In this document: positions 160 to 21,901 of the stretch, piece by piece
How the letters are laid out: each line of letters begins with the position of its first letter
How positions within the stretch are numbered: position 1 is the first letter of the stretch
Source: a phage
DNA length: 64,000 nt
Sequence record: PZ179880.1
Direction: 5' to 3' (one strand)
The notes under the pieces: generated by a model
Seen by the model: the letters and a program-made list of their open reading frames with translations, nothing else
What the model was told of the DNA's origin: nothing
Database searches by the model: none
Made by a program: the position numbers and the translations under genes

Positions 160-1008
160 TTAATCAACTGCTATCGGATGAATAGCATTAAACTTATGAA
201 ATGCTTCTGATTTTTCTTTGCGCGAAACACACATGCGAAGAACCTTTAATGGCTCGTCTTCTTCACCCAACGATTTTCGTTTTTCGATATTAGAAGTTTT
301 CCAACGAGCTTGCTCTGGAAACTCTCTATTGATTTGCTCAAGCGCTCTATTATGTTTAGAATTACTACGAATTGAACTGCACCCGCCAGGAGCTTGTGCT
401 TTTCCAGATACAACCAGATATTTGAACAAGGCCAAATGCGGATAACCTTGATTAATTAAATTGAGAAATGCATACATATCTTCGCATAAATCAATTTTTC
501 CATACCCAATTTGTTCTGTTGTAAGTTTTCCAAGGTCATACCATGTATTCGTGAATCCATATGAATTTTCACGATAATTACCCCAAGATGAAGTAATTTT
601 AAAAATAGGTAGACGAGCATGGCCATGATAATACCCGCAATCCATGGCATCTTCAACGTATTGAATTAATTCATAGAACTGTTCACGGGTTAATTGATTA
701 ATTTTATCTACGCAGCGACGATCATCTTTCTTTCGCATTGAACTCATACGAATAGTAGTATCATCATCGATCATCCAAATTCGCTGACCTGCATACATAT
801 CAGTAATTGCTTTACGAGTTCCAGCAATTCCATTAACATCATCAGGAATAGTTATAATTTTAGCTCTAGACCCATAAGCGTCATAATAAGCTTTTTCTTC
901 GTGTTTACGTACTACAATATGAGGTTCATAATCAGATGGAAACATATCAAGGGCAGAAACTGCCCCTACGCGTTGATAGCTTGGAATTACGAATTGAATC
1001 ATTTCCAC
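160..1008 (-). CDS. Glycosyltransferase, GT-A-like with DxD motif (IWMIDDDTTI), at the locus where T4 carries beta-glucosyltransferase; possibly a beta-alpha-gt-like DNA-modifying enzyme
   Basis: 282 aa ORF between uvsX and gene 42; DDD motif typical of nucleotide-sugar transferases; no resemblance to T4 beta-gt as I recall it. Confidence 0.55.
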   Translation of the reverse strand: MEMIQFVIPSYQRVGAVSALDMFPSDYEPHIVVRKHEEKAYYDAYGSRAKIITIPDDVNGIAGTRKAITDMYAGQRIWMIDDDTTIRMSSMRKKDDRRCVDKINQLTREQFYELIQYVEDAMDCGYYHGHARLPIFKITSSWGNYRENSYGFTNTWYDLGKLTTEQIGYGKIDLCEDMYAFLNLINQGYPHLALFKYLVVSGKAQAPGGCSSIRSNSKHNRALEQINREFPEQARWKTSNIEKRKSLGEEDEPLKVLRMCVSRKEKSEAFHKFNAIHPIAVD

Positions 1009-1739
1009 TCACCGTTATAATCTTTTTTCGCAATATGAGTTTCGCCAGTTTTCCACCAATGGTCAACCAAGTAAAAATGACGGGAATACACATGAAGACT
1101 TCCGACATTCCATATAATGGAACCCGCTTTATACTGGCGAGTTGAATCACCTGCATTCAAATCAGATACTAATTTATCTAGTACGTATTTTTGCCACGCA
1201 TAATCATTGCGGAATCCGAAGACCACGTCATTTGAGCGCATGTTAACTACTGCATTGACTTTCTTATCACGAATCAGATACTGTACTGTATTCGTACACA
1301 TGAAATCTGACATACCATCTTTATTGTAGTCAAACTGCATGGATGGACGAGTATAAATCATGATACCACGCCGAGAATCAGGATTTTGACCAAGTTCAGC
1401 TAAACACATATCATACTGGGCATAGTTATCTTCTGACCAAATAGCCCAACCATAATTCGAGTTAATTTCGCCTTTAGAAGATGCTACCTGCTGCCAAATC
1501 TTTGGTGTTTCACCTGGAATATCTTTAACAAACAAGCTCTTAGATTTATACCATTCAAGTTCGCGCTGAATGTATTCATCATTAAGAGCACCAAAAATAA
1601 ACGGTTCATCTGCTACAAATGATGCGCCAATAATTTCAATAGTTTTAACACCAGTTTTATCAACTACGAAATCTTTTTCTTTTAATGCAAGCCCCAAATG
1701 AAGACGGATTTCTTCAACTGTCATAGAGTCATTAATCAT
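999..1739 (-). CDS. 42: dCMP hydroxymethylase
   Basis: 246 aa, near-identical to remembered T4 gp42 (MI.DSMTVEEIRLHLGLALKEKDFVVDKTG...). Confidence 0.95.
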   Translation of the reverse strand: MINDSMTVEEIRLHLGLALKEKDFVVDKTGVKTIEIIGASFVADEPFIFGALNDEYIQRELEWYKSKSLFVKDIPGETPKIWQQVASSKGEINSNYGWAIWSEDNYAQYDMCLAELGQNPDSRRGIMIYTRPSMQFDYNKDGMSDFMCTNTVQYLIRDKKVNAVVNMRSNDVVFGFRNDYAWQKYVLDKLVSDLNAGDSTRQYKAGSIIWNVGSLHVYSRHFYLVDHWWKTGETHIAKKDYNGEWK

Positions 1740-17390: not shown

Positions 17391-17861
17391 TTAATCATGT
17401 TTCCACACCCCATCGGTATTTGACCAAAGTCGCTGATTATCTGAACCTCGCCACAGCTTTTTGGTCGGAAGATTTTTCTCATACTTCCCATCAATAATAA
17501 CATCAACATATTTAAGCATTTCTAGTTGTTTAATATCTTCAAACTTGTACCCTGTCCACAACCAAATGCTTTTATTTGGATAAAGATTTTTTACTGTTTG
17601 AACAATGCAATGAACAACATCTCGGTTATCAGGATAAAGAGGGTCTCCTCCAGTTATAGTTAATCCTTCTATATAATCATTATTCAAACATTCAATTAAT
17701 TGTTCTAGTGTTTCACCAGTGAATGGAACGCCATTTCTAGCATTCCATGTTGATTTATTATAACACCCTTCACATTTATGCAAACACCCCGTAACGAAAA
17801 GAACGACCCTGCATCCAGGGCCATTCACAAAATCACAGGGATAAAATCTATCGTAATTCAT
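17391..17861 (-). CDS. nrdG: Anaerobic ribonucleotide reductase activating protein (radical SAM)
   Basis: 156 aa; cysteine cluster CLHKCEGC. Confidence 0.92.
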   Translation of the reverse strand: MNYDRFYPCDFVNGPGCRVVLFVTGCLHKCEGCYNKSTWNARNGVPFTGETLEQLIECLNNDYIEGLTITGGDPLYPDNRDVVHCIVQTVKNLYPNKSIWLWTGYKFEDIKQLEMLKYVDVIIDGKYEKNLPTKKLWRGSDNQRLWSNTDGVWKHD

Positions 17862-19675
17862 TGGTGTTTAACCCTATGCATGATTTCTTTATTTTTGCCA
17901 AGATTAAATCCGCGCTCGTTCGGATTTCCCAAATAACCGCAAGTTCTTCTTATTGTGTTCATCTTTTTAGGATCAGTTTCTCCACAAATAGAACAAACAA
18001 ACCCGTTTTCAGTAGGAGTCATTTCATGGGTACTTCCACACGTAAAACATTTATCTACTGGCATGTTAACACCAAAATAATCTAAATGTTGTGCAGCATA
18101 ATCCCAGACAGCCTCAAGACCTTTTAGGTTATTTTTCATATCAGGAAGTTCAACATAAGAAATGTGACCACCTGTCGCAATGAAATGATATGGGGCTTCG
18201 CGAGAAATCTTTTCAAACGGAGTAATATTTTCTTCTACTGAAACATGGAAACTGTTAGTGTACCATCCTTTATCGGTAACATCTTTTACACTTCCATATT
18301 TTTTTGTATCAAGTTTACAGAAGCGATAACAAAGGTTTTCAGCAGGAGTCGAATACAAACTAAAAGCAAACCCAGTTCTTTCAGCCCACTGTTTAAGACG
18401 AGCATTCATTTTAGTTAAAATTTCTTGTCCAATATCACGACCGACAAGAATATTCAATTCATGAATACCAATGTATCCTAAAGACACTGAACTTCTACCG
18501 TTTTTAAATAACTCAATTATGTCGTCATCAGGTTTAAGACGAACCCCGAATGCACCTTCTTGGTAAAGAATAGGAGCAACAGTCGCTTTAACTCCTTTTA
18601 AGGAACTAATTCTACACATCAAAGCTTCAAAACATAAATCCATTCGCTCATTGAACAATTCAGTAAATTTCTGTTCATTGAACTGTGTTCCAATATAAGA
18701 ATCCAACGCAATACGAGGAAGATTCAGTGTTACAACACCAAGATTATTACGTCCATCAAGAATTTCATTACCGGTTGAATCTTTCCACGCGCTCAAGAAA
18801 CTGCGGCAACCCATTGGAGAAACAGGAATAGATGAGCCGGTGATAGCTTTATTGTTCTTAGCTGAAATAATATCAGGATACATCCTTTTGCTTGCACACT
18901 CTAGAGCAAGCTGCTTAATATCATAGTTCGGATCGTCTTTATAAAGATTAACACCTTCTTCAACGAACATAACAAGCTTAGGGAAAATAGGAGTTATCCC
19001 ATCACGACCGAGACCTTTAATACGATTTTTCAGAATTGCTTTCTGAATCATTCGTTCAGTCCAGTCAGTTCCCGTACCAAATGTAATTGTTACAAAAGGA
19101 GTCTGTCCGTTTGAACTAAAGAGAGTATTTACTTCATATTCATAAGCTTGGAATGCATCGTATACATCTTTTTCTGTTTTAGATTGAGCATAATTTAACG
19201 CATCAGCGATTTGCCATTTTTCTGCATCCTCAATATGTTTTGCATAGGTGCGTTTAACATAAGGAGAAAGTACTTTATCTACATTAGCAAAAGTCGTTCC
19301 GCCATATTGATGGGAAGCAACTTGCGCAGTAATTTGTGCCATAATTGCAGTAGCAACGCCAATTGATTTAGGAGTTTCAATCTGCGCATTACCAAGCTTA
19401 AATCCGTTCTCAAGCATTCCTTTTAAATCTACTAAACAGCAATTAGTAAATGGAAGAGCAGGGGAATAATCAATATCATGAAAATGAATAATTCCGCTTT
19501 CATGCGCTTTCATAATAAAAGACGGGACCATATTTTTGGCAATGTGTTTAGACACAATACCAGCCATAAGGTCCCGTTGAGTTGGAAAAACACGAGAATC
19601 TTTATTAGCATTCTCGTTCAAAAGGTCTTTATTAGTTTTATGAATCAATCCTTCAATTTCTTTTTCAATTGTCAT
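17858..19675 (-). CDS. nrdD: Anaerobic ribonucleoside-triphosphate reductase (glycyl radical enzyme), uninterrupted
   Basis: 605 aa continuous ORF; C-terminal Zn-ribbon cysteines and glycyl-radical region. Confidence 0.95.
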   Translation of the reverse strand: MTIEKEIEGLIHKTNKDLLNENANKDSRVFPTQRDLMAGIVSKHIAKNMVPSFIMKAHESGIIHFHDIDYSPALPFTNCCLVDLKGMLENGFKLGNAQIETPKSIGVATAIMAQITAQVASHQYGGTTFANVDKVLSPYVKRTYAKHIEDAEKWQIADALNYAQSKTEKDVYDAFQAYEYEVNTLFSSNGQTPFVTITFGTGTDWTERMIQKAILKNRIKGLGRDGITPIFPKLVMFVEEGVNLYKDDPNYDIKQLALECASKRMYPDIISAKNNKAITGSSIPVSPMGCRSFLSAWKDSTGNEILDGRNNLGVVTLNLPRIALDSYIGTQFNEQKFTELFNERMDLCFEALMCRISSLKGVKATVAPILYQEGAFGVRLKPDDDIIELFKNGRSSVSLGYIGIHELNILVGRDIGQEILTKMNARLKQWAERTGFAFSLYSTPAENLCYRFCKLDTKKYGSVKDVTDKGWYTNSFHVSVEENITPFEKISREAPYHFIATGGHISYVELPDMKNNLKGLEAVWDYAAQHLDYFGVNMPVDKCFTCGSTHEMTPTENGFVCSICGETDPKKMNTIRRTCGYLGNPNERGFNLGKNKEIMHRVKHQ

Positions 19676-20145
19676 TTTAAACTCTTTCTAAGCTGCTTCT
19701 TAAATGAAGCTATTAATTGTGTTTTAGTGTCAGATTCATTATATTCAAATCCTCTTTGAAGCATCTCGGCCATCATTTCCTCTTTTCCTAAACGAGAAAA
19801 TTCCTTTGATTTATCTCCAACAAAGTTAGGGTGAATATTATTTTGGGTGTAATCGGATTTTAAATAAGTAAGTAAATTTTCTAACCATTCAAGATAATCA
19901 ACACCTTGTCCCTTTAAGCCAGAACGATTAAATTTATGCTTCATTTGACCTTCTGCGGCATTGCATAGATTACAAAGCAATCCACGTACCTTTCCTGCTT
20001 TTGGTCCATTTAATTCATGGTCATGATCAAGATGATTAGCTTGAACATCAGGATTTAGTTCTCGTTGGCAAATTAAGCATTTACCGTTTTGCGCATCATA
20101 AAATTTCTGTTTTTCTTCTTTATATAATTTGCCAGTCAATAACAT
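19672..20145 (-). CDS. 49: Endonuclease VII (Holliday junction resolvase)
   Basis: 157 aa, matches T4 endo VII (MLLTGKLYKEEKQKFYDAQNGKCLICQ...). Confidence 0.95.
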   Translation of the reverse strand: MLLTGKLYKEEKQKFYDAQNGKCLICQRELNPDVQANHLDHDHELNGPKAGKVRGLLCNLCNAAEGQMKHKFNRSGLKGQGVDYLEWLENLLTYLKSDYTQNNIHPNFVGDKSKEFSRLGKEEMMAEMLQRGFEYNESDTKTQLIASFKKQLRKSLK

Positions 20146-20177
20146 AATAAAACCCTTACCTTAAATAGATAAGGGTA

Positions 20178-20465
20178 TTTATTATTTTTAAGTATTGTAA
20201 AACATTCGATGCAATCGTTTATACTGTCGAATCATCTTTTTAGTAGGACGAGAATAGGTTCCTACGCAAGTGGTCATATGAGGGTCCGTAGAATGTCCTT
20301 TAATAAAAAGTTTCCAAACCTTACCGCCATTTAACTTTTCAGTATAAACCAATTCGGTTTTCATTAAAATGTCCTGTCAGAAAAAGAATTTTGAGTTTTT
20401 TCAAGTATTGTAAAACATTTGATGCAATCGCTTATATTGCCGAATCTTTTGGTCAGAAAAAGAAA
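20178..20465. repeat. Pair of ~50 bp direct repeats (about 90% identical) spanning the 3' ends of two adjacent ORFs
   Basis: Copy 1 about 20178-20235 and copy 2 about 20395-20455, both TTTTT(C)AAGTATTGTAAAACATT(C/T)GATGCAATCG... Confidence 0.7.
20196..20366 (-). CDS. Hypothetical 57 aa protein sharing its C-terminal 14 residues with the next ORF
   Basis: Hand-translated MKTELVYTEKLNGGKVWKLFIKGHSTDPHMTTCVGTYSRPTKKMIRQYKRLHRMFYNT; not in ORF track (<60 aa). Confidence 0.4.
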
Positions 20466-20904
20466 TTTGAGTTTCAAGCCATTCAATGTACTCTGCGGCA
20501 GCTTGCATCAGGTTACCTTCATAGCCATCGTTATTTTCTTGCGCAGCTAATTTAGCTAATGCGTATGAAATACGTTCACCTTGAAAAGCGGCTTTAGGCT
20601 TCTGAACATCTTGGCTAGTTCTCTCTACAACTTCTTCAATTTCGCCATTTTCAACGGATTCAGTATTCCACAAACACCAGTATGTAATTGGCTTATCATA
20701 GATGTTAATAATCTTTCCGTCGGAAAGTTCAATTTCAATAATTCCAGTATCAGGTTCTATATCATCTTCGCATTCTTTTGCAAGTTCACGAACTTTAAAG
20801 ACAATACCTGCACTAAGTTCAGGCCAGTAATTACACAGCCCTTTATCAGCACGATTAATTCTAAACCACTTATCTACTGTAATCATGTCCCATCTCCATA
20901 TCAA
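20401..20904 (-). CDS. Hypothetical protein at the T4 pin locus (possibly protease inhibitor Pin)
   Basis: 167 aa ORF between 49 and nrdC; product assignment by position only. Confidence 0.45.
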   Translation of the reverse strand: MIWRWDMITVDKWFRINRADKGLCNYWPELSAGIVFKVRELAKECEDDIEPDTGIIEIELSDGKIINIYDKPITYWCLWNTESVENGEIEEVVERTSQDVQKPKAAFQGERISYALAKLAAQENNDGYEGNLMQAAAEYIEWLETQISFSDQKIRQYKRLHQMFYNT

Positions 20905-21008
20905 TTATGTCATTTATTGTAGGTTCATTATATACTGTTTCTTCATCAGTGTAAACCGGTTCTTCCGGCTCTGGCTCCACAGTTTCCCATCTAACCGCCC
21001 ACCAAGGT

Positions 21009-21218
21009 TTAACCCCGAAGCTTATTAAGTTCTTCATAATCAATCCAGGATTCTAGTCCTGATGGCAAATCAGATTCAATTTCCCAAAGAAGTTCTTCAA
21101 TTTTATGAAGACGATCTAATTCTTCAGCTGGAATAGTAACCATTGATGGAGTTCTTGCTACATTAATATCGTAAATCATATTTACCCCAGTTTGACCATA
21201 CAATCGCCGTATTTCCAC
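21009..21218 (-). CDS. Hypothetical protein
   Basis: 69 aa ORF. Confidence 0.4.
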   Translation of the reverse strand: MEIRRLYGQTGVNMIYDINVARTPSMVTIPAEELDRLHKIEELLWEIESDLPSGLESWIDYEELNKLRG

Positions 21219-21397
21219 TTAGAAATAGACTTTTCACCATTAGAATAATAAACTTCAAGTTTAGCACGATTATTTTTAATTTGAATAACCTTGGCTGTCA
21301 TCAAAGTTCCATACCCATAATAAACTGCAACTTCATCACCTACATATACCGCGCTTCCGCGGTAATCATGAATATAGTCAGTTCCTTCGAGCATCAT
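21182..21397 (-). CDS. Hypothetical protein
   Basis: 71 aa ORF. Confidence 0.4.
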   Translation of the reverse strand: MMLEGTDYIHDYRGSAVYVGDEVAVYYGYGTLMTAKVIQIKNNRAKLEVYYSNGEKSISKWKYGDCMVKLG

Positions 21398-21657
21398 TTA
21401 AAATATTCTCGCAGTTGGTCAAATCCACCAATATGACTTCCATCAGGAGCAAATACCTGGGGCATTGTCAAGCCGATTTGAGTATCACGACCTAGTTTAG
21501 TCAGAAGCTCAGCAATTTTCTCATCATCAAAAACACCTTTTTCCGGCATAATGTTGATAAATTCAAACGGCTGTTTCTTCACGGTCAAAAGACGTTTTGC
21601 ATTATCGCAATACACACATTTATGAATGTTGCTATCATAACCATATACTTTAAACAT
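21394..21657 (-). CDS. nrdC: Thioredoxin/glutaredoxin NrdC
   Basis: 87 aa, CVYC active site. Confidence 0.9.
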   Translation of the reverse strand: MFKVYGYDSNIHKCVYCDNAKRLLTVKKQPFEFINIMPEKGVFDDEKIAELLTKLGRDTQIGLTMPQVFAPDGSHIGGFDQLREYFK

Positions 21658-21658
21658 A

Positions 21659-21901
21659 TTATTCCTTAATTCCTAGTACTTGTTTAAAAGTCTCGTCGTA
21701 ATCAAGACTTTGGCCCGTTTGTTCTTTATGTTTGTATATAATATCACTTACTTCTGATAGCATATTTTTATATGAACGAGTTAAAGCAGATTTAAGCACG
21801 CTGTATCTATCAGGAAATTTACCATGTTCATTATAATAAGCTATTGCTAATTCACGGACTGCCTTTTCAGCAGCCTCCATATATTCTTTACGCTTGGTCA
21901 T
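21659..21901 (-). CDS. Hypothetical protein
   Basis: 80 aa ORF. Confidence 0.5.

Follow-up and report, generated by a model that had tools for sequence, protein, structure and literature searches.

The region analysed here lies in a 64,000-nt stretch of phage DNA (PZ179880.1; hereafter the window), a Tequatrovirus (T4-like) segment that spans nrdD, gene 49, pin and nrdC, with all local genes on the minus strand. Along the direction of transcription the order is nrdC (21394-21657), three small ORFs, pin (20401-20886), a small gene that we call X (20188-20364), a stem-loop (20152-20176), gene 49 for the 157-aa endonuclease VII (19672-20145) and nrdD (17858-19675). This gene order, together with the annotation of relatives, bears out the preliminary description, which had placed the locus in the gene 49-nrdC interval of T-even phages. 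The closest relatives over positions 19600-21700 are Escherichia phages ECO07P4 and a51 (99.7% identity) and Yersinia phage ZN18 (99.6%). The pin gene encodes PinA, the inhibitor of host Lon protease, here in its 161-aa T4-type chimeric form, and X encodes a protein of the DUF7279 family (phrog_3272). The sizes first given for the two proteins need adjustment: the small one has 58 rather than 57 residues, and an ORF of 167 codons does exist for the larger one when TTG is taken as its start, but in relatives the annotated start of pin is the ATG at 20886, and the protein then has 161 aa. The stem-loop directly upstream of gene 49 has a 10-bp stem and a folding energy of -18.2 kcal/mol (z = -4.1). 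Both the stem-loop and the adjoining late-promoter-like AATAAATA (20176-20183) are kept in all four layouts of the locus described below, at every locus read and in three other genera. Compared with the T4 late-promoter consensus TATAAATA, AATAAATA agrees at 7 of 8 positions, and RB69 has a perfect TATAAATA. A role in the regulation of gene 49 has reportedly been assigned to this stem-loop (Barth et al. 1988). An Rfam scan of 19600-21700 gave nothing significant, the best match being ohsC with 26.5 bits where the gathering score is 50, and after this null result an RNA reading of the repeat was abandoned.

The pin and X genes end alike. A repeat search aligned 20171-20233 with 20384-20446 at 83% identity over 63 nt, and within this alignment lies a coding core, 20188-20233 (copy B') against 20401-20446 (copy B), identical at 41 of 46 positions (89%), or at 48 of 56 when ten bases are added; the longest perfect block shared by B and B' is 17 nt. 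The 41/46 pair is unique in the 64-kb window in a scan of direct 46-mers at offsets of 46-2000 nt, and in 20 dinucleotide-preserving shuffles the best 46-mer match was 29-33/46; the repeat at offset 213 is well beyond chance. Thus, the direct repeat of about 50 bp and 90% identity first noticed at the gene ends stands, with the correction that its copies are spaced 213 nt from start to start and not about 217 bp. Each copy forms the 3' end of a minus-strand ORF and comprises its final 14-15 codons and the stop codon, encoding KIRQYKRLHQMFYNT in pin and MIRQYKRLHRMFYNT in X, with the common peptide IRQYKRLH(R/Q)MFYNT. The duplication had been said to include the 3' flanks as well; it holds for the coding ends, but past the stop codons the similarity is weak, amounting to about 7 of 10 A/T-rich bases. 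There is also a second direct repeat, at offset 76, in which 20376-20397 and 20452-20473 are identical at 21 of 22 positions. The latter segment (A, minus strand) holds the pin codons for TQISFSD and is the intact counterpart of A' (20365-20397, minus strand), which the alignment with pin ends of other Tequatrovirus phages (type II, see below) identifies as a non-coding remnant of the 3' end of an ancestral short pin (..TQNSFSDRTF, then stop). Because of this second repeat, the layout is A-B-A'-X-B' and not a simple two-copy repeat. Read in gene direction, pin runs through A (TQISFSD) into B (QKIRQYKRLHQMFYNT and stop), followed by A' (TQNSFSDRTF and stop) outside any gene, then by the X body and B' (KKMIRQYKRLHRMFYNT and stop), the hairpin and gene 49.

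Which of the two genes the shared end belongs to is revealed by the protein families. The 161-aa ORF matches Pfam Inhibitor_I24 (PF10465) with 162.1 bits against a cut-off of 27 over residues 4-141, and phrog_2167 covers residues 1-146. The T4 PinA family profile thus ends at about residues 141-146, whereas residues 147-161, the final 15 of the T4-type form, lie outside both PinA profiles and match positions 44-58 of the DUF7279 profile phrog_3272. Together with the shared peptide, this match upholds the earlier proposal that the C-terminus common to both proteins is homologous by descent. Outside Tequatrovirus, genes or gene fragments of pin end in ...FSDEAF, ...FSDRGF, ...FSSKSF, ...FNAKSF or ...YLERRLS, each followed by a stop codon; neither these nor the pin genes in about 127 Tequatrovirus records have the tail, which is accordingly no feature of the PinA family. 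On the other hand, homologues of X that do have the tail are found directly upstream of the gene-49 hairpin in Mosigvirus RB69 (ORF087c, ending in ...RPTKKMIRQYKRFHRDFYNVY), Dhakavirus JS10 and Gaprivervirus VR26. Since pin ends in other genera are without the tail and X homologues are with it, the tail is native to X, and the short ...FSDRAF is the ancestral end of pin. The comparison therefore indicates that the tail belongs to X and that T4-type PinA is a chimera carrying the last 15 codons of its neighbour. The suggestion that the shared tail might be a conserved peptide motif is correct for the family of the small gene, DUF7279, but not for PinA. Compared with T4-type PinA clusters, the window pin shows 93-98% identity, an equal length of 161 aa and the same tail. 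T4 PinA inhibits both the ATPase and the proteolytic activity of Lon, according to work cited in PMC8835725, and the window allele is predicted to be a Lon inhibitor as well.

Gene X is a member of DUF7279 (PF23945) with 62.7 bits against a gathering cut-off of 24.5 over residues 7-56, and it matches phrog_3272 at 3.4e-34 over residues 1-58. It displays both traits of the family, namely the C-terminal RPTKK-IRQ(Y/F)KR(L/F)HR-F motif and the site directly upstream of gene 49. The tail is the best-conserved part of the homologue alignment, with R39, P40, T41, K42, I45, R46, K49, R50, H52, R53 and F55 invariant, and X is under purifying selection across four genera (in the tail, pN of 0.09-0.16 vs pS of 0.6-1.0). 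The AlphaFold2 model of X, with a pLDDT of 81.7 for the best model only and 52-63 for the other four, consists of three strands and a C-terminal helix (residues 42-56) that coincides closely with the repeated segment; a Foldseek search of the PDB with this model found no match below E = 0.27. Apart from spurious eukaryotic repeat proteins, a profile search with the X alignment against 1.8 billion representatives found only close relatives within Tevenvirinae and a single distant homologue of 54 aa. The window, translated in six frames and scanned with an HMM, contained no further DUF7279 copies. We found no mention of DUF7279, PF23945 or RB69ORF087c in the literature searched, the coverage of which was incomplete. 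For annotation of this region it follows that the 58-aa ORF is a real conserved gene and that the 33 nt upstream of it are a non-coding pin relic.

By reading Tequatrovirus sequences base by base we established four natural layouts of the locus. In type II (e.g. OE5505 and Sa45lw), a 148-aa pin ends in SFSDRAF, its stop codon overlaps the start of X (TAATG), and X follows with its tail. In type I, represented by T4, RB27 and four IMG/VR contigs, and also by T6 and PST on the basis of a matching 637-nt span, pin encodes 161 aa and there is no X. T4 differs from type II by the loss of exactly 137 nt, and at its junction, GACCGA/ATGATTC, translated as SFSDR/MIQQYKRLHQMFYNT, the Met44 codon of X and the arginine codon that belonged to the old pin end are both still recognisable; the junctions in other type I phages read DQM or DQK, single-base steps from DRM. 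Type III (Pu-Krd-SF6) has a short pin and has lost X by a 169-nt deletion with the junction TTTTAAT/ACTTGA. The window represents type IV, that is, the fused pin, then the 33-nt relic of the ancestral pin end and then a complete X. An IMG/VR scan with pin yielded five loci, too few for layout counts, and junction-specific megablast was used instead; with records required to cover at least 80% of the query, so that the counts are lower bounds, it gave 113 records for type IV, 339 for the A-B junction (types I and IV, which puts type I at about 226), 57 for type II and 70 for type III. The type IV count agrees with a tblastn search with X (111 records at 99% or more), and an evenly spaced genome sample is consistent with the layout counts. 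The 113 records with the type IV junction come from phages of Escherichia, Shigella, Yersinia, Salmonella and Proteus hosts, and the layout of the window looks stable. The comparison of T-even genomes for copy-number variation, proposed in the preliminary description, was thus rewarding: the intervening gene is present or absent exactly at the repeats.

These layouts suggest how the window came to carry its repeats. Comparison shows an ancestral state in which a 148-aa pin (...SFSDRAF) overlapped the start of X (TAATG) and was followed by X, the hairpin and gene 49. In the T4 lineage, as the same comparison shows, the 137-nt deletion (from GACCGA to ATGATTC) took out the pin stop codon and X codons 1-43 and joined pin in frame to X codons 44-58, giving rise to the 161-aa T4 PinA (...SFSDR-MIQQYKRLHQMFYNT); the junction variants DQM and DQK arose by later point changes. 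Subsequently, on the simplest history, a phage with the fused pin (DQK) probably recombined illegitimately with a phage that had a short pin and an X allele like that of Sa45lw. The join may have occurred at an A-rich micro-homology, ACTTGAAAA/AACTCAAA, since ACTTGAAAA/TAAT at the end of B and GCTTGA/AACTCAAA at the start of A would combine into the observed ACTTGAAAAAACTCAAAA. Such a join would have put the last 11 codons of the donor pin, now the non-coding relic, together with the whole of X and its native tail, downstream of the fused pin. X would thereby have lost its translational coupling to pin, and a change of CGAG to AGGA in the relic would have provided it with a ribosome-binding site of its own. 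The relic differs from the type II pin end at 4 of 33 positions, and three of these differences cluster in precisely this change, which is located 7 nt before the X ATG and is present in type IV only; we infer that AGGA is the Shine-Dalgarno sequence of X, compensating for the lost coupling. Two illegitimate recombination events in a variable region, a fusion and then the re-acquisition of X, are in our judgement very probably the explanation of the repeat. By the same token, we are rather confident that the repeat is an ordinary scar of evolutionary recombination and not a functional element or a new device.

The main competing explanation is the one initially put forward, a partial tandem duplication within the genome that included a gene end, the copies having since diverged to about 89% identity. 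Two nested direct repeats, at offsets 213 and 76, are what such a process could leave behind, and if a unit A-X-B were duplicated and the first X body then lost, the same A-B-A'-X-B' order would result. The copies are not, however, each other's closest relatives. The pin tail (B) differs from the X tail of OE5505 at 1 of 48 positions and from the X tail of its own neighbour (B') at 5 of 48, and being closer to the X tail of another phage, it marks the window as a recombinant rather than a decayed tandem duplication. Moreover, the X body and the X tail of the window have diverged from OE5505 at similar rates (8/129 and 4/48 differences), and a pin relic lies between the copies. Over the first 84 nt of the unit (A-B) the window does not differ from type I phage RB27. 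The X body matches that of type II phage Sa45lw except at two sites near its 5' end, Sa45lw itself having kept the ancestral CGAGC...TAATG junction. The relic A' has the N allele and the intact A the I allele of a difference that segregates among pin genes in the population (P0028 and others), and it is the pin copy that bears the most derived junction, DQK. The allele distances thus suggest that the 89% identity of the copies reflects two allele lineages of X and not the decay of a local duplication. An A-X-B duplication from which the first X was then deleted appears to fit these distances and the derived DQK less well than recombination does, and we consider a tandem origin of the repeat unlikely. 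It is even harder to accept that X with its flanks is a mobile cassette, of the PeSL or homing type, that was inserted at the end of pin and duplicated its target. Formally, a 213-nt segment does lie between 46-nt direct repeats, and the region is hyperplastic, of the kind for which PeSL-mediated indels have been described (PMC4122927). Yet four genera have X at this site as the ancestral state, so that the outgroup site is not empty, and the locus has no endonuclease, integrase or inverted repeats, X being a 58-aa protein without a nuclease domain. The repeat itself is coding, without a sigma70-like promoter or a stem-loop, and has no further copies in the 64-kb window. A transposon or homing insertion with target duplication was accordingly rejected on account of the missing nuclease domain, the missing flanking inverted repeats and the presence of X in outgroups, and a PeSL motif was rejected because both copies are coding, with no promoter- or terminator-like site in 20188-20233 or 20401-20446, and number just two in the 64-kb window instead of being many and dispersed. 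All in all, a cassette of this kind is highly improbable.

The remaining alternative concerns function rather than origin: the repeat could be a C-terminal module shared under selection, through which PinA gained the function of the basic and aromatic DUF7279 helix, e.g. in binding Lon, nucleic acid or a partner, with both copies kept by selection on both proteins. The tail is indeed strongly conserved in X and predicted to be helical, and it is present in full in all 161-aa clusters. More intriguing is the number of times that pin and DUF7279 have been joined. In a Mosigvirus-like metagenome contig (L015, 1201-1626), a deletion at an ACGTTT micro-homology fused pin to the X tail (...YLERR/FHRDFYNVY), with gene 49 following directly. 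In two others (L016 and L017, 1201-1776), which come from separate samples, the downstream X is deleted and pin carries the upstream DUF7279 paralogue as an in-frame N-terminal fusion, producing a protein of 191 aa. RB69 (L005) has such a second paralogue upstream of pin, ORF089c (990-1106, minus strand; tail RPTKRQLRKAKRSHRNFYREY); it is annotated there as a 38-aa ORF starting with TTG, but related contigs (L015) have full-length 56-aa versions, so that in Mosigvirus pin is flanked by DUF7279 genes on both sides. The Mosigvirus-like fusions are an independent recurrence of the same series of events as in Tequatrovirus. With the T4-type tail, the Mosigvirus-like tail (P0047) and the N-terminal full fusion (P0046), there have been at least three separate fusions, and by Rosetta-stone logic these, together with the paralogues on both sides of pin in RB69, would make DUF7279 proteins partners of PinA and their C-terminal basic helix a transferable module. 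The repeated fusion could hint at a functional link, although adjacency alone is a sufficient explanation, as it makes deletion fusions likely; we therefore hold such a partnership to be improbable. Were it real, the helix might serve to bind Lon or a substrate, the activity of PinA would be altered by the T4-type tail, and in the lineage of the window selection would retain the module-bearing PinA along with a free DUF7279 protein.

Several observations speak against selection for the module in PinA. About 127 Tequatrovirus records and all other genera manage with a tail-less pin, and the fold search, with its best E-value of 0.27, was uninformative. In captured tails the changes are M44K, R46Q, H52N and R53Q, i.e., four nonsynonymous and no synonymous, and the last three affect R46, H52 and R53, positions that are invariant in X; between the window and OE5505, by contrast, the native tails of X show three synonymous and no nonsynonymous changes. 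The contrast of 4:0 vs 0:3 corresponds to a Fisher probability of about 0.03 in what is a small sample. The substitution pattern leans towards the captured tail being tolerated baggage in PinA, and a selected shared module seems to us unlikely. Some benefit of the tail to PinA is nevertheless conceivable, its full length being kept in every 161-aa PinA cluster seen.

The layouts also bear on the idea that the repeat itself may mediate deletion of the intervening gene. Formally, a B x B' crossover would be expected to yield type I and an A x A' crossover type II, and the copies could in principle recombine. However, all six type I sequences read have TGA at the site where the window X has TAA, and type I junctions include DRM and DQM, more primitive than the DQK of the window; both details argue against an origin of type I from B x B'. 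For A x A', the product would be a short pin ending in SFSDRTF, and none was found among 13 clusters of 148-aa pin, just as no crossover product of the repeat copies was found in the sequences compared. The 17-nt perfect block is short for T4 homologous recombination. Given that DQK is two single-base steps removed from the primary junction DRM kept in T4, and given the difference in stop codons, the T4-type layout without X appears to be ancestral to the window layout and not its repeat-mediated deletion product. The order of events was deduced from a few sequences, by way of their junction variants and allele distances, and pin alleles are mosaic, so that gene conversion could blur the allele distances.

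The picture that emerges is in many respects familiar. Hyperplastic regions of T4-like phages undergo modular shuffling and indels mediated by PeSLs (Arbiol et al. 2010; Comeau et al. 2014, PMC4122927), and the pin-49 locus resembles them in that small non-essential early genes located between core genes are gained, lost and swapped among close relatives, with short repeats at the break points and four layouts among near-identical genomes. On the other hand, PeSLs are intergenic composites of a terminator and an early promoter that exist in many copies and act as a recurrent recombination signal, whereas the window repeats consist of coding sequence and a pin relic at a single locus and are products of illegitimate joins. 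The fusion itself is like other cases of chimeric ORF formation by deletion, in which the in-frame loss of a stop codon and of the 5' part of a neighbour endows the upstream protein with the neighbour's C-terminus. What distinguishes the window from a plain deletion fusion is that the donor gene has been restored downstream, and it is this coexistence of the chimera with an intact donor that produces the direct repeat. The locus therefore offers a clean and datable case of hyperplastic change in T4-like phages, combining deletion fusion, whole-gene loss and cassette re-acquisition at one site. Although of an ordinary kind, the event is apparently unreported for PinA, and we know of no paper tracing the C-terminus of T4 PinA to the neighbouring gene. 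Work on Lon biochemistry uses PinA in its 161-aa T4 form; the 15 C-terminal residues of that form, a predicted helix from a DUF7279 neighbour, are foreign to the ancestral inhibitor. This origin of the tail bears on construct design and on the reading of PinA-Lon structures, the more so as a natural tail-less PinA of 148 aa is common.

The surroundings of pin and X depart from those in T4 in further ways. In the window, nrdD (within 17391-19675, minus strand) is one unbroken ORF of 605 aa that abuts a 156-aa nrdG-like ORF; in T4 (NC_000866), nrdD is interrupted by a group I intron that carries a homing-endonuclease ORF, and mobC separates nrdG from nrdD; the window phage is without both. Between pin and nrdC (20870-21397, minus strand), a 57-aa 49.1-like ORF, a 69-aa ORF and a 71-aa DUF7205 ORF replace 49.2 and 49.3 of T4. 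The 69-aa ORF has a sub-threshold Pfam match to the RecBCD inhibitor gp5.9 of T7 (E = 0.004, 17.5 bits vs a cut-off of 24.5), and its counterpart in relatives is annotated as 'antitoxin from a toxin-antitoxin system'. Finally, a strong sigma70-like promoter match, TTTACA-17-TATAAT (11/12), is present at 20927-20955 on the minus strand, inside the 49.1-like ORF just upstream of pin, and may serve as an early promoter for pin and X.
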